64,000 bases of DNA from NCBI GenBank assembly GCA_963725905.1, contig CAVSAG010000001.1, positions 380,748 to 444,747 on the forward strand, read 5' to 3'. Of the stretch, positions 1-23,787 are shown one piece after another; positions within the stretch are counted from its first letter, which is position 1; each line of letters starts with the position of its first letter. The notes under the pieces were generated by a model. That model saw only the letters and a program-made list of their open reading frames with translations. It was not told the DNA's origin and did not search any database. Source of the DNA: an uncultured Pseudomonadota bacterium. GTDB taxonomy: Bacteria > Myxococcota_A > Polyangia > Fen-1088. The position numbers and the translations under genes are program-made.

Positions 1-1960
1 TGCTGTACTGCTGCGACCGCTGGTAGGTGAGGTTCGGGTTTCCGAACAGCGCGGGGATCAGGTCCTGCGGCTGCGGCGCCTCGGAGTAGAGGCCCGCGCC
101 GGCCTTCAGCACGGTCTCGGGATTGACGGTGAAGAAGGCGGAGATGCGCGGATCGAACCACCAGGAGTGCCCGTTCTGGATGTCGGAGCTCGCGTCGAAG
201 CGGAGGCCGGGCTGGATGCGCAGGCGCGGCAGCGGCACCCAGCTGGCGGTGGCGAACAGCGCGGGCTGCGCCCAGTTGGTGCTGGCGCTGGTGTTCTTCG
301 AGGGGTTGGCGTTGAGGCCCGCCCATGCCGAACGCGCTCTGGCTCTGCGCGACCGAGAAGGTCGGCAGGTCGATGTTGTAGGTCAGGTGGCGCAGCGACG
401 AATCGGTCCCCATCTCCAGCGAGAACTTGTCGGACGGGCGGTAGACGAGCGTGTCGCGCAGGCTGGCGGTCCAGAGCTGCCCCTCGAGCTTCAGCGCGTT
501 CACGATCTGGTTCGTCGTCTCGGTGTAGCCGAACGAGAGGATGGCGTCGTTGCGCCAATCGTGCGCCGAAGCCGCGCTGCCAGCGGGCGGCCAGCCGGTG
601 GAACTGTACCTCGGTGTCGAACGAGATCACGCGCGCGGTGTTGGAGTCGAGGATGTCGAGCTTGTCCTGCGAGCCGTAGGCGAAGAGCTGCCCGGTGCCG
701 CCCCAGGAGCGAGTGCACGTACTTGGCCTGGTAGTCGTAGAAGACGGGCGCGACGGTCAGGCCCTGCGGCACGACCTCCTTGAGCACCTCGTCGACCCAG
801 CTGCGCCGCACCGAGAGCAGGAAGCTGCCGTTGCCGACCGGGCCCTCGACCATCGCGGCGCCGTCGTAGAGATCGACGTGGCCGGCGCCGTGCCACTCGT
901 GCTTCGGATCGCGGGTGCGGATCTCGACGGTGCCGCCCATCGCGTTGCCGTAGTTGGCGGCGAAGTTGCCCGGGTAGAAGTCGAGCCCCGAGATGATGTC
1001 CGAGTTGACCACCGCGGTGAGCGCACCGAAGTGGAAGATGAGCGGGATCTCGACGCCGTCGAGGTAGACCTTGGTGTCCTGCGGCGCCGACCCGCGCACG
1101 ATGAGCAGGCCCAGCCCGAACGGCGCGCGCGCCACGCCCGGCAGATCCTGCAGCACCTTGAGCACGTCGCCCTGCGTGCCGGGGACGGTGTTGATCTCCT
1201 GCATGCTGACCTCGTGGACGGCGACCTCCTTCCGCTCGCGTGCGCCGCGGACGACGGACTCGAACGCGCCGTAGCGCTTCCGGTTCATCCGGTACTCGAC
1301 CTCCTTCACCTTCCCGGCCTCGATGATCTCGTCGATCGTCAGCGGGTGGTGCGACGAGGAGACGATGTGGATCTTGACCGGCCCGACCGGCAGCCCGCGC
1401 AGCGCGAAACGCCCGTCGGTGTCGGTCTCGGCGGTCGGCAGGTCCGCCGCCTCGACGCTGGCGCCGACGACCGGGTCGCGCGTGCCGCGCTCGATGATCC
1501 GGCCGAGCAGGGAGACCGGCTTCTCGGTCGGCGGGGGGGGCGGTGGCGCCTGCTTGATGACGAACTCGTAGCGGTACTCGATCTCGACGGCGGCCGGCTT
1601 GCCGTCGATCTCGGCGGGCGAGAACTGGAACTGCTTGACCGCCGCCACCGCGGCGGGCGCGAAGCCGGGATGCGGCCCGGGATCGACGACCTTGATCGCG
1701 CCGACCGCGCCCTTCTCGTCGATCACGATCGACAGCGTGACCGCGCCGGTGATCCCGGCGGCCTCGGCGTCGGGCGGGTAGGCGGCAGCGACGAAATGCG
1801 TGAGCGCCGGCGGCTTGACCGCGGGCGCGCCGCCGTCGCCCGCGGGTGCCGGTGCGGGCGCGGCGGCGGCCGCCGCATCGACGCCGCCGTCGAGCGGGGG
1901 CTGGGCCTGGACCTGGAGCGCCGCCAGGAAGAGCGCGGCTGGAAGCGAGGCCACCAGCAT
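1..1960 (-). CDS. TonB-dependent receptor with N-terminal TonB-C domain and carboxypeptidase-regulatory-like domain; partial at window edge, frameshifted near 695 and 555
   Basis: Signal peptide; TonB-C motif YPPDAEAAGITGAVTLSIVID..FQFSPA; plug motif GDVLKVLQDLPGV..LIVRGSAPQDTKVYLDG; barrel sequence continues in another frame (ISFDTEVQFHRLAARWQ). Confidence 0.85.
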
Positions 1961-2128
1961 CAGGGCCCCGTCGACACTTGATCGCGACGGATGGTTAGGA
2001 GAGCCGTGGCGGGGAGGGGAGCCATCGTCGAGGACAATGGACTACCTCGCGGAGCGTCGCGATGCCAAGGGCCAAGCGCACTTGGCGCATGGGACAATGC
2101 TGTTACTTCCTTTTCCCGGGCCGGTCGG

Positions 2129-2206
2129 TGCGGTATAAATGTCGCCCTTACTGCCCGCCTGGCGCGCGAACCTGCGCGGCCACCCCCAGTTACAAAGGAG
2201 CGGTCC
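2129..2206 (+). promoter_or_regulatory. Conserved promoter/5' leader, copy 1 (TATAAA box, leader, AAAGGAG RBS)
   Basis: TGCGGTATAAA at 2129-2139 and downstream leader closely match 19866-19943. Confidence 0.7.
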
Positions 2207-4141
2207 ATGACTCGGCACGCATATCTTCGCCTTCGGCTCACCTCGTTTTCGCCCCTGGTCGTCTTGGCAGCCGCCAGCCTCCTGTCGTGCGCATCGCCCG
2301 GGAGCACGGGCGGCGGGTCGGGCGGGAGCAATGGCAGCGGCGGCAACAACAGCAGCGGCGGCAGCAACGGCAGCGGCGGCAGCAACAGCAGCGGCGGCAG
2401 CAACGGCAGCGGCGGCAGCAGCAGCAGCGGCGGCAGCAACGGCTCGGGCGGCAGCGTCTCGTCCGGCGGCAGCAATGGCTCGGGCGGCAGCACGGCCAAG
2501 GGCGGCAGCAACGGCTCGGGTGGCAGCCCGTCGTCGGGTGGCAGCGTCGGCTCTGGCGGCAGCTCGTCGTCGGGTGGCAGCAGTGGCTCTGGCGGCAGCT
2601 CGTCGTCCGGCGGCAGCGTCGGCAGCGGTGGCAGCTCGTCGTCGGGCGGCAGTGTCGGCTCTGGCGGCAGCAGCTCCAGCGGCGATCCGCCCGGTTACTA
2701 CCGCACCAGCGAATGGAACGTGAACAGTGTCGACTGGCACGGCTGCGTCTGGACCGGTATCGACAGCACCGTCTCCGGGAGCACGACGAGCATCACGCCC
2801 CAGGACTTCACGGCCAAGTCCCCGAACGGTGGCCCGTACGAAGTCAGCGGGAGCGTCTTCAACGACTACAACGCGGTCTCGCTCTTGGGATTCAACCTGA
2901 ACGAGGCTACGACGGGGAGCAGCACGCAGTGCAAATACAACCCCGCCGCAGCGACCCAGGCCGGTCCGCCGACGGCGACGATTCCCAGCTCCGCGACCGG
3001 CATCGCCGTGAACTGGAGCGCGAAGGTCGCGCCGCCCACGTCGTTCCGCATCCAGATTCAGGCGCCCGATGGCGCAACCAACGCGGCCGATCGCTGGTGC
3101 GCGACGATCACCGATGCGCAGGGCCCGAGCTTCATCCCGTTCTCGAGTTTCTACCCGCAGTGCTGGAATGTGGGCGTGTCGGGCATGAGCCCCGGCACCG
3201 CGTACGCGGGCCAAGCCATCGACGCCGTGGTGTTCCTCGTCCCCGGCACGATGTCCATGAAGGCACCCTTCGACTTCACGATCGTCGGCTTCGCCCCCGG
3301 CACCAGCAAGAGCGACGCGCCCGGTGGCGCAGCGGCTTGCGGGACCATCACGGGGACGCTCGGCTCATCGACCGCAGGGATGACCGCGTCCTACGCCCGC
3401 GCGGCGGTGACCGGGACGGACTGCAAGGAATACATCATCCAGAACAACAACTGGGGCAATCCCACCGGGTCGACCCAGCTCATCAACTACACGGGCAGCA
3501 GCTTCACGGTCCAGAGCAGCAGTGGGTCGGGCAGCAGCGCTCCCGCATCGTTCCCGTCCACTTACATAGGCGCGAACGGCAACATCGCCAACGGCACCTA
3601 CAACACCTGGTCCGACAGCGGCCTGCCAAAACAGATCAGCGCCATGCAGAGCGCGATGACCAACTTCACTTGGTCGGGTGGTTCATCCGGGGGAGATTTC
3701 AACGCGACCTACGACGTCTGGTTCGCGAAATCTCCGCCGACCGCCGGTGCCTACAACGACGGCATCTCCGGCTTCCTCATGGTCTGGCTCTACAAGCCGG
3801 GCAGCAGGCAGCCAATCGGTTCGAGCGTGCGTACAGCGAGCATCGCGGGCCACACCTGGAACGTGTGGGTCGGTCCCCGAGGTAACACCTCGACGGGTAC
3901 GGACCCCGCTTCGCGGCCGGTCATCTCCTACGTTGCGCAGGACTCGCCGGTCTCCAGCCTCTCGTTCAACCTGAAGGACTTCATTAGCGACGCCGTCAGC
4001 CACGCAGACACCAACAACGGCGTCACCGGACCGTTCTCCAGCAGCTGGTATCTGACCGACGTCTTCGCCGGCTTCGAGATCTGGAGCGGCAGCGCCGCGA
4101 CCAACCTGAAGAGCACCGGCTTCAGCTGCGTGGTCAAGTAG
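2207..4141 (+). CDS. Lipoprotein: Gly/Ser linker, CBM-like beta-sandwich, GH12-like domain
   Basis: RBS AAAGGAG; lipobox LLSC; (GGSNGS)n linker; GH12 motifs QNNNWG, YDVWF, LMVWL, QPIG, VFAGFEIW. Confidence 0.85.
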   Translation: MTRHAYLRLRLTSFSPLVVLAAASLLSCASPGSTGGGSGGSNGSGGNNSSGGSNGSGGSNSSGGSNGSGGSSSSGGSNGSGGSVSSGGSNGSGGSTAKGGSNGSGGSPSSGGSVGSGGSSSSGGSSGSGGSSSSGGSVGSGGSSSSGGSVGSGGSSSSGDPPGYYRTSEWNVNSVDWHGCVWTGIDSTVSGSTTSITPQDFTAKSPNGGPYEVSGSVFNDYNAVSLLGFNLNEATTGSSTQCKYNPAAATQAGPPTATIPSSATGIAVNWSAKVAPPTSFRIQIQAPDGATNAADRWCATITDAQGPSFIPFSSFYPQCWNVGVSGMSPGTAYAGQAIDAVVFLVPGTMSMKAPFDFTIVGFAPGTSKSDAPGGAAACGTITGTLGSSTAGMTASYARAAVTGTDCKEYIIQNNNWGNPTGSTQLINYTGSSFTVQSSSGSGSSAPASFPSTYIGANGNIANGTYNTWSDSGLPKQISAMQSAMTNFTWSGGSSGGDFNATYDVWFAKSPPTAGAYNDGISGFLMVWLYKPGSRQPIGSSVRTASIAGHTWNVWVGPRGNTSTGTDPASRPVISYVAQDSPVSSLSFNLKDFISDAVSHADTNNGVTGPFSSSWYLTDVFAGFEIWSGSAATNLKSTGFSCVVK

Positions 4142-14307: not shown

Positions 14308-14478
14308 CTAGGCGCCGGCCGCTTCGGCGGCCTCGACGAACAGCGATGGGTCGGCGACGAACTGGTCGTGGCAGGCCTGCGAGCAAAAGTAGTAGACCGT
14401 GCCGTGGTGATCGACCGCGCCGGCCGCGTCCACTCGCTTGAGCTCGCGACCGCAGACCGGGTCGACCGCGCTGGCCAT
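14308..14478 (-). CDS. YHS-domain small metal-binding protein
   Basis: DPVCG..YYFCSQAC..FVADP. Confidence 0.85.
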   Translation of the reverse strand: MASAVDPVCGRELKRVDAAGAVDHHGTVYYFCSQACHDQFVADPSLFVEAAEAAGA

Positions 14479-14614
14479 CTCGATCTCCTCCCGGTCGCCG
14501 AAGCTGACGCGGCCGTTGTCCAACGATTCCGTCACGCGGGTCATCTCGCCCAACGTGATCACGCGCGATCGAATGTCCACTGGCCAGGCCTCAGCCGCCG
14601 GCTATATTCCACGC

Positions 14615-15013
14615 ATGAGCCACGAGGGATACCACGAGCCGGCCGACCTTCTGCCAGAGGCGACCAAGGACTTTCACCGCGCGATCGTGTCGTTGATGGA
14701 GGAGCTGGAGGCGATCGACTGGTACCAGCAGCGCGCCGACGCCACGAAGGACGAGGCGTTGCGGGCCATCATGCTGCACAACCGCAACGAGGAGGCTGAG
14801 CACGCGATGATGACGCTCGAGTGGCTGCGCCGCCGCGACCCCAAGATCGACGACGTGACCCGGACCTACCTCTTCGCGCAAGGGGAGATCACCAAGATCG
14901 AGGAAGCCAAAAAGGCGGCCCAGGCCGCCGGACAGATGGCCGGGAACGGCGGCGGCGCCAACTCTGGGGGCTCGCCCGCCTCGCTTGGCATCGGAAGCCT
15001 GAGGAGCCTCTGA
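14615..15013 (+). CDS. Encapsulin-associated ferritin-like protein (EncFtn/Flp) with cargo-loading peptide
   Basis: HRAIVSLMEELEAIDWYQQRA..HNRNEEAEHAMMTLEWLRR; C-terminal SLGIGSLR. Confidence 0.95.
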   Translation: MSHEGYHEPADLLPEATKDFHRAIVSLMEELEAIDWYQQRADATKDEALRAIMLHNRNEEAEHAMMTLEWLRRRDPKIDDVTRTYLFAQGEITKIEEAKKAAQAAGQMAGNGGGANSGGSPASLGIGSLRSL

Positions 15014-15819
15014 TGGCCCGGGATCTGCTGAAGCGCGACCTGGCGCCGATCACGCCCGACGCGCTCGACGCCGTCGACGCCGAGGCGGCGCGCGTCCTCA
15101 AGTTGAACCTGGCGGCGCGCCGCCTGGTCGACTTCAAGGGGCCGTACGGCTGGCAGCTGGCGGCCGTCAACACGGGCCGCGTCGACCCCTGCGCGGGCGG
15201 CGGCTCCGACGTCGAGCTCGGCATCCGCAGAGCGCAGCCGCTCGTCGAGCTGCGGGTTCCGATGCGCGTCGCGCTCGCCGAGCTCGACGCCGTGGCGCGC
15301 GGGGCGACCGATCCCGATCTCGCCGCGGTGGTCGCCGCCGCCGAGAAGGCGGCGCACGCCGAGGACGCGGCGGTCTTCAACGGCCTCGCCGCCGCCGGCA
15401 TCAAGGGCATCATCCCCGCCAGCCCGCACGCGCCGCAGAAGCTGCCGGCCGACGTGCGCGAGCTGCCGGGCGCCATCCTCGCGGCGCGCGAAACGCTCCG
15501 CCAGGCGGGGGTGAGCGGTCCGTACGCGCTGGTCCTCGCGGCGCCGATCCACGCGCAGGTGCTGGCCGCTGCCGAGGACGGCTATCCGCTGGCAAAGCGG
15601 ATCACGCAGCAGGTCCTCGACGGTCCGCTCGTGCGCGCCTCGGCGATCGAGGGGGGCGTGTTGCTTTCGCTCCGCGGGGGCGACTACGAGCTGCACGTCG
15701 GGCAGGATCTTTCGGTCGGCTACAGCTGGCACGACGGCCAGTTCGTCGAGCTCTATCTGACGGAGTCGTTCACCTTCCGGACGCTGGAGCCGGCGGCGGC
15801 GGTGGCACTGCGCCGCTGA
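15013..15819 (+). CDS. Family 1 encapsulin shell protein (Linocin M18-like)
   Basis: LLKRDLAPIT..RRLVDFKGPYGW..AEDAAVFNG..GQDLSVGY..LYLTESFTF; TGATG coupling to cargo gene. Confidence 0.95.
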   Translation: MARDLLKRDLAPITPDALDAVDAEAARVLKLNLAARRLVDFKGPYGWQLAAVNTGRVDPCAGGGSDVELGIRRAQPLVELRVPMRVALAELDAVARGATDPDLAAVVAAAEKAAHAEDAAVFNGLAAAGIKGIIPASPHAPQKLPADVRELPGAILAARETLRQAGVSGPYALVLAAPIHAQVLAAAEDGYPLAKRITQQVLDGPLVRASAIEGGVLLSLRGGDYELHVGQDLSVGYSWHDGQFVELYLTESFTFRTLEPAAAVALRR

Positions 15820-18569: not shown

Positions 18570-19592
18570 CTACCAGAGATCCAAGTCGCGGAAGCCGTGG
18601 CCGGGCGGCGGTGGCGGCGGCGGAGTCGGCTTCGAGCCGGAGGTCCCGCCGGTGCCCGACGACGACCCGCTGGTCCCGCCGGTGCTGGAGGTCCCGCCCG
18701 TCGAGCCGGTGCCGTTCTGGCGCCAGACGGTGACCGGGTTGTTCCAGCCGGCGCAAGCCTTGAAGCCATCGGGCGCGTAAGGGTTGTCGGCCTGCGCGCA
18801 GCTGGTGCTGCACTGGGCGTACTGGCCCCCGAGCGGATCGGTGTAAGGCGGGTCCGTCTGGACCGACCCGAGGCGGCCGGCCGGCGGGTTGACCTTTACC
18901 TGCGGACCGGCGCAGTAGTACATTGCCAGGGTGTTCTGCCCGACGCCGTGCGCGTTCGGCGTGAAGATGTTGCCGAAGAAGCTGGCTTCCTCGTTCGGAT
19001 AGGTCGGATCGAGGCCCCACCCGACGGCGCTGTTCGGCGACACCATCCAGAGCGGGATGTGGACGCCGGCCGTGTTCACGTGGGCCAGCATGCAGGCCGA
19101 CACGTTCTCCTGGCAGGTCGTGCCGCAGGCGCCGTTCTGCCATTCGGGTGCCATGCCGAGCAGACCGCTGAACGTGTAGCTGACGCCGTTCTGATCTTGC
19201 TTGACGATGGAGGCGCCCGCCGGCAGCGCGCAACGAACCAGATACGCGATCTGCGTTCTCCCGAGCGTCGTCGTCATGAGGCCGGTCGTGGAGCTGAGGC
19301 CGTTGGCGGTGCCGAGGCCGTTGGCGGTGCCGAGGCCGTTGGCGGTGCCGAGGCCGTTGGCGGTGCCGAGGCCGTTGGCGGTGCCGAGACCGTTGGCGGT
19401 GCCGAGGCCGTTGGCGGTGCCGAGACCGTTGACGGTCGTCAGGCCGTTGATCGTCGCCAGGTCGGCGGTGACCGCAGTTGTCCCTACATCATCCTCGCCC
19501 ATCTCGCCGCACCCGATCAGGGAGACGGCCAGCGATGTGCCGACGCACAGGGAGAGCCACTTTGAGTCCCATCGTCCGGTTGCAGCAGTCAT
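18570..19592 (-). CDS. Hypothetical Cys-rich lipoprotein with NGLGTA hexapeptide repeats
   Basis: LIGC lipobox; YLVRCALP..GLLGMAPEW..CQENVSACMLAHVN domain. Confidence 0.8.
   Translation of the reverse strand: MTAATGRWDSKWLSLCVGTSLAVSLIGCGEMGEDDVGTTAVTADLATINGLTTVNGLGTANGLGTANGLGTANGLGTANGLGTANGLGTANGLGTANGLSSTTGLMTTTLGRTQIAYLVRCALPAGASIVKQDQNGVSYTFSGLLGMAPEWQNGACGTTCQENVSACMLAHVNTAGVHIPLWMVSPNSAVGWGLDPTYPNEEASFFGNIFTPNAHGVGQNTLAMYYCAGPQVKVNPPAGRLGSVQTDPPYTDPLGGQYAQCSTSCAQADNPYAPDGFKACAGWNNPVTVWRQNGTGSTGGTSSTGGTSGSSSGTGGTSGSKPTPPPPPPPGHGFRDLDLW
19305..19430 (-). repeat. 18-bp tandem repeat x7 (NGLGTA)
   Basis: GGCGGTGCCGAGRCCGTT units on the plus strand with degenerate flanking units. Confidence 0.95.
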
Positions 19593-19865
19593 GCACTTAG
19601 ATATGACTGCAATAGGTATGCTAGTTCACAAAATTATCTGGCCGTAAGGATATCCGTTATTTGGCCGACCGGCCCCAGGGCGGGGCGGCGCCCTTGTTGA
19701 CGGCGAGGCGTCAGAACCGTTGTCCGCGCCACAACAAGTTGCCGGGCGGACGGGCAGTTACGCGCCCGCCGCAGGGGGGCTGCGAAAACGCGCGACCAGA
19801 CGACAGGCTCCCGGCTCTAAATGGGGGAAAGAGGTCCGCGACTTCACTTCTCCCGCGCTGGGGGC

Positions 19866-19943
19866 TGCGGTATAAAACGCGCTTACCGCCCGCTCGGCGC
19901 GCGACCCGTTCGCGGCCACCCCCAGCCACAAAGGAGCAGGTCC
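19866..19943 (+). promoter_or_regulatory. Conserved promoter/5' leader, copy 2
   Basis: TGCGGTATAAA..CGCGGCCACCCCCAG..ACAAAGGAGC shared with 2129-2206. Confidence 0.7.
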
Positions 19944-22343
19944 ATGACTCGGCACGCATATCTTCGACTTCGCTTTGCCTCCCCTTCGAACCTGGTCGTG
20001 CTCGCCGTCGCCGGCGTGCTCTCCTGCGCGGCGCCCGCAACGGTCGGCGGGGGCTCGGGCGGCAGCAACGGCAGCGGCGGTAGCAACGGCAGCGGCGGCT
20101 CCAACGGCAGCGGCGGTAGCAACGGCAGCGGCGGCAGCAACGGCAGCGGCGGCTCCAACGGCAGCGGCGGCTCCAGCAGCAGTGGCGGCTCCAACGGTTC
20201 GGGCGGCAGTGTCTCGTCGGGCGGCTCCACCGGGACCGGCGGCGCGAAGGGCGGCAGCACGGGCTCGGGTGGCAACACGTCGAGCGGTGGCAGCACCGGC
20301 ACCGGCGGCAGCACGGCGAGCGGCGGCAGCACCGGCACGGGCGGCAGCACGGCGAGCGGCGGCAGCACCGGCACGGGCGGCAGCACGGCGACCGGCGGCT
20401 CGACCGGCGCCGGGGGGACCCGCCCCTCGGGCTGCCCCGCAAACGCCGACACCATCTCGGATTTCGAAGAGGGAACGACCGGCATCGTCACGCCGCAGGG
20501 CGGACGCACCGGCTGGTGGTACGTGTTCTCGGACGCGACCAACAACGGCGGCATGTCTCCGGCGGCGAACTCGACCGGCCCGATCACCACCACGATGCTC
20601 GCGTCGGGCGATCCCAACTCCGCCACCTGCGACAAGTGGGACCTGGAGGCCAAGACGACCGCCTCCCACACCACCTGGGGCGCCGGGTTCGGCACGTCGC
20701 TCAACCAGGTGATGCCGCCGCCGACCAGCACGACGGCCAAGACCAAGAACCCCTACGACGTGAGCGCGTACAACGGGATCAGCTTCAACATCAAGTCGGG
20801 CTCGGGCACCGCGCCGCCCATCTGGTTCGAGATCGCGACGCTCAACAACCAGCCGCAGCCGGACGGATCGATCCACACCTCGGACGGCACCGCCAGCGGC
20901 ACCGCGAGCGCGCCCAGCAGCAACGGAACCGACGAGTACAACACCCGCGGAATGCTGATCAAGAACATCGGCACCAGCTGGACGAAGGTCTACGTGCCGT
21001 TCGGGACCCTCGGGCCCCGTTACCTGCCGGCTCCAAGCACGTGCGCGAACACCGCCGTCAAGTGCGAGGCACCTCCCTTCAAGGCGACCGACGTCCTGGG
21101 CCTGCAGTTTGCCGGCTACACCCAGTTCGGGACGAACGCCGGGACCTTCGACGTGATCGTCGACGACGTGGCCCTCTACAAGGGGACCAATGGTCTGGCG
21201 TCGTTCACCGCAGGGATGCTCCCCAAGGACGGCGCGTCGCTCGGTTCCTGCAAGAAGCCGACGGGGGCCACCATGGACCAACTGACGAACATGTACGCCA
21301 ACTGGAAGGCGACCTTCGTGACCGGCTCGGGCAGCTCGACCCGCGTGCAGCGTCCCGAGAACGCCAACGACACGGTCTCCGAGGGCATCGCCTACGGGAT
21401 GCTGATCGCCGTCAACATGAACGACAAGACGCTGTTCGACGCCCTCTGGTCGTACGAGCAGGGTCACAAGGCGACCGGCAACCTCATGACCTGGTGTATC
21501 GACGGCGGCAGCGGCGGCATGGGCAGCCAGTGCTCGGCGTCGGGCGGCTCCGCGACCGACGCGGACGAGGACATGGCGTTCGCCATGCTGGTGGCGGCCA
21601 AGCAGTGGGGCGGCACCTACCAGTCGACCGCGACGGGACTCATCACCGACATCTGGAACAACGACATCGACAAGTCGTCGATGCTGCCGACGGGCGGGAG
21701 CAACTTCGGCAACAGCACCTCCAGCCAGCCGACCAACCCGTCGTACTTCGCGCCGGCCTACTACCGGGCGTTCGCCACCGTGGACTCGGGCCACGCCTGG
21801 GGAACGGTGGCGTCGAACTGCTACACGGCGATCTCGAAGGTGGCGAACGGCTCGACCGGTCTCGTCCCGGCCTGGTGCAGCAGCAACTGCGGCTCGGCCG
21901 GCGGCGGTAGCTACACGGACAACGGCGCCTATCAGTACGACGCGCACCGTGTGCCGTGGCGGCTCGGCATCGACGCCTGCTGGAATGGGACCACCTCGGG
22001 GAACACGGTCCTTTCAAACAACGCCAAGTTCTTCCAGGGGATCGCCACGCCCTCGAGCGGCGGCGGCGGCGTCGGGCGCATCGAGGACATCTACCTGCTG
22101 AGCGGAACGGTAAACGGCGACGCCGGACCGAACTCCATGTCGGCGGTCGGGACCGCGGGCGTCGGCGCCATGGCCGTCGGCAATTCTTTCGCGAGCACGG
22201 CCTACCAGTTCATTCTCGACGGGTCGTACTCGCCCGCCTCGACCATTCCCGACACGAGCGGCAGGGTCTCCTACTCGTACTTCAACGCGACGGTCGGCCT
22301 CATGAGCGCGCTCACGATGAGCGGCAACTTCAACCACCCGTAG
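19944..22343 (+). CDS. Lipoprotein: Gly/Ser/Thr linker, CBM11-like domain, GH8 glycoside hydrolase
   Basis: VLSC lipobox; YDVSAYNGISF..FDVIVDDVALY; GH8 motifs TVSEGIAYGML, SATDADEDMA, NPSYFAPAYYR, YDAHRVPWR. Confidence 0.9.
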   Translation: MTRHAYLRLRFASPSNLVVLAVAGVLSCAAPATVGGGSGGSNGSGGSNGSGGSNGSGGSNGSGGSNGSGGSNGSGGSSSSGGSNGSGGSVSSGGSTGTGGAKGGSTGSGGNTSSGGSTGTGGSTASGGSTGTGGSTASGGSTGTGGSTATGGSTGAGGTRPSGCPANADTISDFEEGTTGIVTPQGGRTGWWYVFSDATNNGGMSPAANSTGPITTTMLASGDPNSATCDKWDLEAKTTASHTTWGAGFGTSLNQVMPPPTSTTAKTKNPYDVSAYNGISFNIKSGSGTAPPIWFEIATLNNQPQPDGSIHTSDGTASGTASAPSSNGTDEYNTRGMLIKNIGTSWTKVYVPFGTLGPRYLPAPSTCANTAVKCEAPPFKATDVLGLQFAGYTQFGTNAGTFDVIVDDVALYKGTNGLASFTAGMLPKDGASLGSCKKPTGATMDQLTNMYANWKATFVTGSGSSTRVQRPENANDTVSEGIAYGMLIAVNMNDKTLFDALWSYEQGHKATGNLMTWCIDGGSGGMGSQCSASGGSATDADEDMAFAMLVAAKQWGGTYQSTATGLITDIWNNDIDKSSMLPTGGSNFGNSTSSQPTNPSYFAPAYYRAFATVDSGHAWGTVASNCYTAISKVANGSTGLVPAWCSSNCGSAGGGSYTDNGAYQYDAHRVPWRLGIDACWNGTTSGNTVLSNNAKFFQGIATPSSGGGGVGRIEDIYLLSGTVNGDAGPNSMSAVGTAGVGAMAVGNSFASTAYQFILDGSYSPASTIPDTSGRVSYSYFNATVGLMSALTMSGNFNHP

Positions 22344-22416: not shown

Positions 22417-23787
22417 ATGACCAGGCACGCGGCTTTCGGTCGGCTGGCGCGGGTGGCTTGCCTGGCGGCGCTGGCGGCCGCCTGCTCGGGGGGCTCTTCG
22501 ACGGGGACTGGCGGCGCTCCGGGGAGCGGCGGCGCTCCGGGGACCGGCGGGGTTCCGGGGACCGGCGGTAACAGCGCTACGGGCGGCTCCGCCGGAGGGA
22601 GCGGGACGGGCGGCAGCGCCGGGGTTGGCGGGAAGGCGACGGGTGGCGCTGGCGGCGCGAAGGCGACCGGTGGGAGCGGCGGTGGCTCGGCGGGGGCTGG
22701 CGGTCAGGCGGGAGCAGGGAGCGGCGGGCAGGCCGGCGGCAGCGGCGGGCAGGCGGGCAAGGGGACCGGCGGCGGCAGCGGCGGGCAGGCGGGCAAGGGG
22801 ACCGGCGGCGGCGGACGGGCCGGCGCCGGAGGGGGCGCGGCCGGGGGCGCCGCGGGTGGCAGCGCGACGGCGGGGTCGTGCGTGTTCCCGGCCAGCTCGA
22901 CGATCTGTCAGGACATCTCGGGCGCGGCCGTCGACGGCGAGTCGACGGCGATCATGAGCGCGCTCGACGCGTCGGGGTGGGGGAGCGGCCTCGGGATCGA
23001 CGTCTCGTTCACCATCCTCACCGCCGACGCGAGCGTCGCACGGCGCGCGTTCACCTCCAGCGGCGACGAGCCGGACTGCGACACGGCGCCGATCCCCGTG
23101 CCGCCGGGTGGAAACATCGAGGGGAACCCGGACTACCACTGCGCCGACGGCGGCGACTGCCACCTCCTGGTCTATCAAGGGACGCGCCTCTACGAGCTCT
23201 ATCAGGCCGACATCTCCGGCGGTGCGGCGACGGGCGGGACCTTCAAGGGGAGCTGCGAGGTGGTCTGGGATCTGACCCACGACTACTGGCAGCCGATGAC
23301 GCCGCCGACCTTCAGCCGCGGCGACCACTGCAACGGCGCCGACGCCGCCGACCTGCCGATGGCGGCGCTGATCTTGACCAGCGCCGACGTCACCTCCGGC
23401 CAGATCAACCACGCGCTCCGCTTCACGATGCCCAACCCGCTCATTCAGGAGAGTGTCTACGTCCACCCCGCCACGCACATCGGCGGACCCTCGGGCGTCG
23501 GCCCGACGTTCCTGCCGTACGGCGCGCGCCTGCGCCTGCGCGGCGACTACGATCTGAGCCAGCTGCCGAGCAACGCGGCCCGCACCGTCGCGCGCGCTCT
23601 CCAGAAGTACGGCATGTTCATGGCCGACGGAGGCAGCCTGTTCCTGAGCGCCACCGTCGACGTTCAGGACGTGATCGCGACGTCGTCGCTGCGCGGCCTC
23701 AAGGCGACCGACTTCCAGATGGTCGACGGCGGCCCGCGCTACACCTGGAGCGACTACCAGTGCCAGCGCACCCCCGTCACCAACTGA
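22417..23787 (+). CDS. Gly-rich-linker lipoprotein with uncharacterised conserved domain
   Basis: AAAC lipobox; GDCHLLV..LYELY..ADAADLP..INHALRF..PYGARLRL..ALQKYGMFMADGG. Confidence 0.8.
   Translation: MTRHAAFGRLARVACLAALAAACSGGSSTGTGGAPGSGGAPGTGGVPGTGGNSATGGSAGGSGTGGSAGVGGKATGGAGGAKATGGSGGGSAGAGGQAGAGSGGQAGGSGGQAGKGTGGGSGGQAGKGTGGGGRAGAGGGAAGGAAGGSATAGSCVFPASSTICQDISGAAVDGESTAIMSALDASGWGSGLGIDVSFTILTADASVARRAFTSSGDEPDCDTAPIPVPPGGNIEGNPDYHCADGGDCHLLVYQGTRLYELYQADISGGAATGGTFKGSCEVVWDLTHDYWQPMTPPTFSRGDHCNGADAADLPMAALILTSADVTSGQINHALRFTMPNPLIQESVYVHPATHIGGPSGVGPTFLPYGARLRLRGDYDLSQLPSNAARTVARALQKYGMFMADGGSLFLSATVDVQDVIATSSLRGLKATDFQMVDGGPRYTWSDYQCQRTPVTN

Follow-up and report, generated by a model that had tools for sequence, protein, structure and literature searches.

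The window analysed here is a stretch of 64,000 nucleotides (nt) of contig CAVSAG010000001.1 from an uncultured soil myxobacterium (Polyangia), hereafter G000, the assembly of which comprises 6.1 Mb with a G+C content of 70% and is 79% complete. It contains two glycoside hydrolase (GH) genes located on the same strand 17.7 kb apart, namely gene A (positions 2207-4141, 644 aa), coding for a GH12 protein, and gene B (19944-22343, 799 aa), coding for a GH8 protein, which have a common front end including a promoter-like block, a 5′ leader, a ribosome-binding site, a lipoprotein signal peptide and a linker. Both proteins have the same layout: the signal peptide extends to Cys28 and is followed by a Gly/Ser-rich tether some 135 residues long, then by a middle domain (206 residues in A and 241 in B) and a catalytic domain. 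The features of the two loci are as follows.

2104..2143, plus strand: promoter-like block of gene A, consisting of T/C-rich ACTTCC..TTTTCCC (2105-2117), a variable spacer and GGTATAAA (2132-2139)
2144..2206, plus strand: putative 5′ untranslated region (UTR) of gene A with the CTTACTGCCCGCC block, a hairpin (2160-2182), a C-rich run (2180-2189) and the Shine-Dalgarno sequence AAGGAG (2195-2200)
2207..2290, plus strand: predicted lipoprotein signal peptide of gene A, 28 codons, lipobox L-L-S-C with Cys28 (from the translation)
2291..2686, plus strand: Gly/Ser-rich tether of gene A, made of 18-nt repeats (Tandem Repeats Finder: period 18, 19.6 copies)
2687..3304, plus strand: middle domain of gene A (type X), predicted to be all-beta and probably carbohydrate-binding, without a family assignment (no Pfam match above the cut-off)
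3428..4141, plus strand: GH12 catalytic domain of gene A up to the stop codon (PF01670, E 8.9e-27, residues 408-641)
19747..19844, plus strand: filler of about 100 nt between the end of the synteny of the B locus and the start of the shared cassette
19841..19880, plus strand: copy of the promoter-like block before gene B, with ACTTCACTTCTCCC (19841-19854) and GGTATAAA (19869-19876)
19881..19943, plus strand: copy of the putative 5′ UTR before gene B, with a hairpin (19896-19917), the C-rich run and AAGGAG (19931-19936)
19944..20027, plus strand: predicted lipoprotein signal peptide of gene B, lipobox V-L-S-C with Cys28
20028..20453, plus strand: Gly/Ser/Thr tether of gene B (Tandem Repeats Finder: period 18, 19.3 copies)
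20454..21176, plus strand: middle domain of gene B (type Y), probably carbohydrate-binding (sub-threshold match to CBM_11, E 0.022)
21288..22343, plus strand: GH8 catalytic domain of gene B up to the stop codon (PF01270, E 6e-43)

By profile and solved-chain matches gene A is assigned to the GH12 glucanases (95 bits with a PF01670 cut-off of 27; closest solved chains 1oa4, a GH12 endo-beta-1,4-glucanase, E 5.9e-31, and 1nlr, a GH12 endoglucanase, E 6.4e-24) and gene B to the GH8 glucanases (147.6 bits with a PF01270 cut-off of 24; closest solved chain 1cem, CelA of family 8, E 2.6e-44 over residues 449-799). This agrees with the sequence-only reading of the window, a previous model-made note written without database searches, which had placed different catalytic domains after a shared linker. 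A lipoprotein signal peptide consists of a basic n-region, a hydrophobic core and a lipobox that ends in Cys. In both proteins residues 1-28 show three Arg within the first ten residues, a hydrophobic run and the lipobox Cys, so that both N-termini fit a bacterial lipoprotein, with lipidation and cleavage being predicted; the translations also bear out that both start with MTRHAYLRLR and have an LSC lipobox.

The middle domains show no relation to each other in hhalign (probability 0.33%). Their AlphaFold models are poor (pLDDT 50.3 for A with an 8-row alignment and 53.2 for B with a 12-row alignment), and their neighbours in the Atlas are similar to carbohydrate-binding modules (CBM30, SGBP_B_XBD, CIA30-like), which are to be taken as leads only. 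The middle domain of gene B is conserved together with the GH8 domain in 13 other genomes of the genus.

Homology between the two loci extends over some 105 nt of non-coding sequence and continues through the signal peptide and the Gly/Ser linker. In the pairwise alignment of 1950-2720 with 19690-20460 it begins sharply at approximately 2104/19845, the DNA further upstream being unalignable, and it then runs through the TATAAA box (2134-2139/19871-19876), CTTACyGCCCGC, a GC-rich inverted repeat, the C-rich run, AAGGAG and the ATG, so that every block of the front end listed in the sequence-only reading is covered. The leader (-105 to -1) is identical at 84 of 99 aligned bases. Codons 1-10 share 28 of 30 nt, despite being A/T-ending, and code for MTRHAYLRLR in both genes; codons 11-44 share 71/102 nt, with nine of 18 four-fold sites identical. 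At the protein level BLASTP finds residues 1-40 alone to be alike (29/40 identical) and nothing after the tether.

The linkers carry odd units in the same order, namely GGSSSS, GGSNGS, GGSVSS and AKGGS, as had been supposed. The proximal part of the gene B tether is collinear with that of A to just beyond AKGGS and is followed distally by an STGTGG-type repeat. It is within this repetitive linker DNA that homology fades and the shared stretch has its 3′ limit; the exact junction cannot be placed because the linker repeats evolve in concert, and gene B of G020, the nearest sequenced relative of G000, has an A-like distal linker. The earlier proposal of a swap by recombination within the Gly/Ser repeat fits this 3′ limit, but not the 5′ junction, which is non-homologous. 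The filler at 19747-19844 has no match elsewhere in the genome or in the fetched loci. A third lipoprotein gene, at 22417, does begin with MTRHA, as had been pointed out; three of these five codons differ, however, and its upstream DNA is unrelated, which leaves it outside the cassette.

When a 201-nt query was searched against the 6.1-Mb genome, only two long matches, A and B, were found among those listed, the remaining 38 listed matches being no longer than 37 nt with E values of 0.047 or worse; the A/B match is not due to chance. The motif GGTATAA[AG] occurs at seven sites in the genome, and at five of them the remainder of the motif is lacking. With a covariance model derived from six leaders no third copy was found in G000, the next match being at E 4.15, so that both BLAST and the model give two copies, and no regulon-wide motif before several different genes was found in this 79%-complete genome. 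At least 12 other predicted lipoproteins of G000 have a Gly/Ser/Thr/Ala-rich repeat tether right after the lipobox Cys, which means that such tethers are a habit of this organism. The shared leader and signal peptide are limited to genes A and B in G000, despite the many tethered lipoproteins.

The distribution outside G000 was studied in a genus set of 26 genomes, all of them metagenome bins (G000 and relatives likewise designated by G numbers), and in a set of 61 related genomes, among which long DNA matches to the leader are confined to the same genus. The leader model gave 15 matches in 12 of the 26 genomes, with no more than two leaders per genome. Six of these are full MTRH/MARQ-type (H-type) leaders: genes A and B in G000 and likewise in G020 have one each, as do gene A in G025 and a GH12-like gene in G018; six are more distant leaders before MTRQAY proteins (G001, G007, G011, G012, G019, G021); and three cover the promoter block only (G003, G004, contig 5 of G018). 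All the genes headed by the leader are GH12 or GH12-like, except for the two GH8 copies of G000 and G020. The GH12-like form has a different middle domain and no Pfam match, and matches solved GH12 chains at E values from 5.5e-21 to 4e-11. Across the Polyangia, the leader is present at seven of 75 loci encoding relatives of the gene A body in species genomes. Being matched only before GH12-type genes of the genus and the GH8 pair, the leader is restricted to one lineage and characterises a single gene family, and is not a dispersed element. The search for further downstream domains proposed in the sequence-only reading added none beyond the GH12-type genes and the GH8 pair. A search of a 5.8-billion-protein set with residues 1-40 of gene A returned the query alone at E ≤0.01, a query too short to be informative on other fusions.

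The gene B body, comprising the middle domain and GH8, has full-length relatives in 13 other genomes of the genus. Out of 16 GH8 loci examined, ten have a readable N-terminus, the remainder being cut by contig ends or frame breaks. The front ends of these ten are:

MTRHAYLRLR: G000, G020
ML[AS]RNAS: G003, G004, G018
MQRRASLVQGL: G007, G008, G011, G013
another signal peptide: G022

Eight of the ten readable GH8 orthologues thus have different signal peptides, and in all seven of those with inspected upstream DNA the promoters differ too. The cassette promoter block is absent before the GH8 genes of G003, G004, G018, G007, G008, G011 and G013, where there are instead two different promoters, conserved and of canonical appearance: TTGGGG..TACGAT preceded by a TG, and TTGGCA..TAGGAT. 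The GH8 protein of G003 is the closest body after that of G020 (83% identity), yet it has another signal peptide and promoter. Upstream synteny of the B locus with G003 and G004 stops at window positions 19746/19744, where the filler and then the cassette follow.

A maximum-likelihood tree built from 12 front ends places the two GH8 sequences (support 95/98) within a 100/100 clade together with the GH12 leaders of G000, G020, G025 and G018, and the MTRQAY leaders form the other clade. The A-B identity is 80% and 78% within the two genomes and 79% and 79% between them, and there are A-specific and B-specific differences common to G000 and G020, which fits one event before the split of the two. 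The other front ends on the GH8 orthologues and the nesting among GH12 leaders support the reading that the front end is native to the GH12 glucanase genes of the genus and that the GH8 gene captured it, putative promoter included. Sharp limits of homology, a different sequence in the orthologues of the recipient and nesting in the tree of the donor family, all of them features by which a capture is recognised, are found here together. The view of the front end as a transferable expression and export module, put forward from the sequence, stands up well to these comparisons.

It is quite probable, in our judgement, that the GH12 front end was copied by ectopic recombination onto the GH8 gene before the G000/G020 split and was conserved afterwards. 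A single functional unit would consist of the promoter-like block, the 5′ UTR (about 60 nt, including a small hairpin and a strong ribosome-binding site), the lipoprotein signal peptide and the tether, and it would be native to the GH12 glucanase genes of this uncultured Polyangia genus. Ectopic recombination would have put this unit over the native GH8 front end 17.7 kb away, with one crossover in the repetitive linker DNA and the other at a non-homologous junction just upstream of the promoter. Both enzymes would now probably be transcribed, translated, exported and anchored alike, and both non-coding copies would since have been held by purifying selection, as might be expected of a working promoter and 5′ UTR.

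The conservation of the leader was compared with that of four-fold sites and of the DNA further upstream, with the copies of gene A or B in G000, G020 and G025 designated A0, A20, A25, B0 and B20:

A0 and A20: leader 100/105, four-fold sites 206/252, DNA further upstream 114/148
B0 and B20: leader 98/102, four-fold sites 222/312, DNA further upstream 127/157
A0 and A25: leader 86/99, four-fold sites 100/195, DNA further upstream 108/145

Judged by an identity of 85-87% against about 50% at four-fold sites (A with B, and A0 with A25), the leader is clearly under purifying selection. The conserved parts succeed each other as a T/C-rich block, a free spacer, an invariant GGTATAA, a further free stretch, a block kept at the likely start, hairpin arms with a free loop, the C-rich run, AAAGGAG and the first eight or so A/T-ending codons. 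The simplest reading of this pattern is a putative working promoter followed by a 5′ UTR and a translation-initiation region. A candidate upstream open reading frame (ORF) in the A leader, with its ATG inside TATAAATG and its stop overlapping the main ATG, was rejected as a chance occurrence; it is open in G000 and G020, and its ATG is absent in B and in G025.

The sequence-only reading had suggested a possible undescribed cis-regulatory element for a cellulose/glucan regulon. A rival explanation along these lines, which we regard as unlikely, is that the leader acts as a structured cis-regulatory RNA of a kind not described before, riboswitch-like or protein-binding, which would control a beta-glucan regulon and be shared on account of this function. 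It would account for a non-coding part far more conserved than the four-fold sites and for a hairpin with conserved arms and a variable loop, which is predicted in all six H-type leaders; the G025 leader retains a 9-pair stem despite its altered sequence in a single-sequence fold, and in several folds a segment at the 5′ end can pair with the ribosome-binding site. Against this, there are two copies in this genome and no more than two per genome in the genus. Rfam covariance models have no match at E up to 10 in 2000-2300 and two sub-threshold matches in 19740-20040, both outside the leader, so that neither leader is placed in a known family. None of the eight hairpin pairs varies on both sides in a MAFFT alignment of six sequences, which has low power with its four independent lineages, and every shuffle reaches the observed covariation scores. 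Nor is there unusual folding stability compared to shuffled sequence (z-scores +0.09, +0.66, -0.92, +0.65, +0.41 and +1.36), and two related MTRQAY leaders, those of G001 and G021, lack the hairpin. A metagenome scan with a degenerate leader pattern yielded 37 stretches, none of which was confirmed by the leader model (best scores 20 and 18.9 bits). With two copies, a lineage-restricted leader and no Rfam, covariation or folding signal, a regulon-wide RNA element is therefore unsupported. Since the G025 stem is kept with an altered sequence, a small stabilising 5′ stem-loop remains plausible from the fold predictions.

An old duplication of the ordinary kind, after which domains were swapped and the leader drifted neutrally, is considerably less probable still. 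There are indeed only two copies, and the event is old, A and B being as alike between G000 and G020 as within each of them. Drift does not account for a leader at 85% identity beside adjoining four-fold sites at 50%, an excess repeated in the orthologues (87% and 51%, 96% and 71%, 95% and 82%), while the non-coding filler next to the cassette reaches no more than 79% identity when G000 is compared with G020. The sequence-only reading had taken two copies together with a leader no more conserved than synonymous sites as the mark of such a duplication; the first was found, and because the leader exceeds the synonymous sites, the second was not. Moreover, the GH8-body orthologues have other front ends, so the front end alone was copied and not the whole gene.

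An assembly artefact, in which the linker repeats had joined a wrong 5′ end to the GH8 gene, might be suspected where all the genomes are metagenome bins and the linkers are long arrays of 18-nt repeats, and is nevertheless scarcely credible: two genomes that were assembled separately show the arrangement, on contigs 847 kb and 877 kb long; the copies differ at about 15% of leader positions, which a collapsed repeat would not do; both genomes retain the differences specific to each copy; and the DNA at the join upstream of the cassette is unique.

Several points nevertheless weigh against the capture of the GH12 front end as described above. In the tree the GH8 copies fall outside the trio of A sequences (support 86/83), so the exact donor is not pinned down, and G018 has a second GH12-like locus with the same leader type. 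The donor, which we infer along with the mechanism of recombination, may be the neighbouring A locus or a second locus like that of G018, possibly unsampled because G000 and G020 are only 79% and 73% complete. The 5′ junction has no flanking homology, which means that this was not classical two-sided gene conversion, and the approximately 100 nt of filler at 19747-19844 are unexplained. The direction of copying is derived by parsimony over the ten readable orthologues. As for the promoter, the sigma-70 type has -35 and -10 hexamers spaced by 16-18 nt, and a simple sigma-70 scan calls none at either leader: TATAAA matches five of six -10 positions, without the final T, and there is no good -35 (TTTTCC or TTCTCC). 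With a TATAAA/TATAAG box and a poor -35, an activator-dependent promoter is possible; promoter activity, the transcription start and co-regulation are likewise proposed from the sequence.

The remaining genomes of the genus show that exchange between GH12 and GH8 genes has recurred. The A locus can be recognised by a 43-nt block beside a divergent receptor gene in 11 of the 13 genus loci checked, and 11 of 13 also retain the promoter-like block at the A locus, including cases with a different downstream leader. In G003, G004 and G018 the A locus has a different distal leader and a signal peptide of the type M[LV][SV][RK]T.., with or without a Stig1-like Cys-rich module, and the GH8 genes of the same three genomes have the same second-type front end as their A-locus genes. 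The Stig1-like module (PF04885, E 1.2e-12) has about 170 residues and is located between the lipobox and the tether of both GH12 and GH8 lipoproteins. A rough script count found at least 16 Cys before the body at 16 of the 75 Polyangia GH12 loci, at which the module would thus be present. Loci with the Stig1-like module include L086 (contig 5 of G018), L095 and L099.

Within a genome, the Cys-rich modules of the GH12 and GH8 genes are identical at 385 of 405 positions in G018 and at 381 of 408 in G004, whereas between G018 and G004 the module is 63-65% identical. An identity of 93-95% within genomes compared to 63-65% between them is the signature expected of conversion after speciation. This pattern of concerted evolution is seen in G018 (95%) and G004 (93%) and not in G000/G020. 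The tract shared in G018 and G004 stops short of the promoters, the region from -150 to -31 being about 35-40% identical, so that a tract including the putative promoter is found only in the G000/G020 lineage. Both N-termini are readable in six genomes, five of which share the front-end type between the two genes, with G007 as the exception.

In G001, G011 and G021 (the set of loci L083, L088 and L090) a GH12-like body with a different middle domain is present at the receptor-adjacent locus and its promoter, and the GH12-like ORFs break off at 302 aa in G001 and at 271 aa in G021. The presence of GH12-like bodies at the same locus and promoter implies that bodies have been exchanged as well as front ends, while the promoter stayed in place. 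A rough script call over the 75 Polyangia loci places the same GH12 body behind many unlike lipoprotein signals, which may also be ordinary divergence at that distance. Taken by genus, the comparisons support an exchange that is directional in the lineage of G000 and recurrent and bidirectional across the genus. A further suggestion, which we put forward tentatively and hold to be rather doubtful, is that the matching N-terminal modules of GH12 and GH8 proteins are maintained by selection and not by the repeats alone, front ends (signal peptide, Stig1-like Cys-rich module and tether, and in the lineage of G000 also the promoter and leader) being repeatedly copied either way so that the two enzymes are made and sorted together. 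If true, this would be concerted evolution of an expression and export module between non-homologous enzymes, for their co-production and the same surface or vesicle destination.

Gene A is divergent from a gene coding for a receptor with TonB_C, CarboxypepD_reg and Plug domains. This receptor ORF (window 500-1960, minus strand) ends after 486 aa without a barrel domain, which could reflect a frame break or a continuation in another frame near 500-630, and its start region has extra bases in G000 relative to G020. The 43-nt block (GGACAATGGACTACC .. GCGATGCCAAGG) lies at 2030-2072; among the 11 loci that keep it, seven have 3-5 mismatches and the other four 9-11. On the minus strand it reads TTGGCA, an 18-nt spacer and TAGTCC a few bases before the divergent receptor start, and is probably the promoter of this TonB-type receptor gene, with a very short leader.

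A Pfam scan of 29 ORFs of about 110 aa or more from window 1-26854 found no regulator gene between A and B. The genes located there (RibD_C, FG-GAP, RCC1, HAD/ACT phosphatase, MsrB, an EncFtn and encapsulin pair, MFS and PhzF) are unrelated housekeeping genes. The EncFtn-like gene is followed by a Linocin_M18 encapsulin shell gene (14438-15819), forming an ordinary-looking ferritin-encapsulin pair. Upstream of the B locus there is an AT-rich island of about 80 nt (19590-19670) in this genome of 70% G+C.

Related arrangements have been described before. Kellett and co-workers reportedly found in 1990 that xylanase B and arabinofuranosidase C of Pseudomonas fluorescens subsp. cellulosa, encoded by neighbouring genes and having different catalytic domains, have a common N-terminal non-catalytic region and Ser-rich linkers, the shared region being taken as a case of module duplication or shuffling. 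That pair resembles genes A and B in being nearby glycosidase genes with different catalytic domains and a common N-terminal part. It is said to share a cellulose-binding domain, whereas here the promoter-like block, 5′ UTR, lipoprotein signal and tether are shared and the presumed binding domains differ; in addition, the direction and recurrence of exchange can here be read from 26 related genomes. The variable surface lipoprotein families of mycoplasmas (vsp, vlp, vpma) also have a conserved 5′ non-coding region and signal peptide, and they are large families serving phase or antigenic variation via site-specific inversion or slippage. They are similar to the present case in having a conserved cassette of promoter, leader and prolipoprotein signal before divergent mature parts. 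The present case differs from them in comprising two copies whose cargo is enzymes and in having no switching machinery.

In the lpl cluster of Staphylococcus aureus, according to the summary of Tsuru and Kobayashi (2008, PMC2568036), the recombining conserved unit is the intergenic region with the 5′ part of a lipoprotein gene and not the ORF, and homologous recombination takes place at a conserved internal sequence. The moved block spans the same kind of region in both cases; in that summary, however, lpl genes are tandem paralogues of one family, while here unrelated folds lie 17.7 kb apart and a low-complexity linker would be the substrate. Carbohydrases of Teredinibacter, Saccharophagus and Cellvibrio are outlined elsewhere as having long Ser-rich low-complexity linkers, typical of the lineage, that join modules (PMC2699552). 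The likeness lies in low-complexity Ser-rich linkers of secreted carbohydrate-active enzymes; the polyserine linkers join catalytic and binding modules, and that outline makes no claim of promoter or signal-peptide exchange. A literature search at the title and abstract level found no description of this GH12/GH8 case.

What is seen here is gene-piece swapping of a known kind and not a new class of regulator. It offers a clean and datable example from nature of a block of promoter, leader, signal peptide and tether that would have moved as one between unrelated catalytic folds, with the linker repeats probably serving as one recombination substrate. For annotation it means that N-terminal similarity does not amount to orthology, and the block itself is a compact candidate expression and export cassette for high-GC myxobacteria. 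Surface glucanases of these uncultured soil Polyangia have exchangeable front ends, which bears on how repertoires of carbohydrate-active enzymes become rewired.

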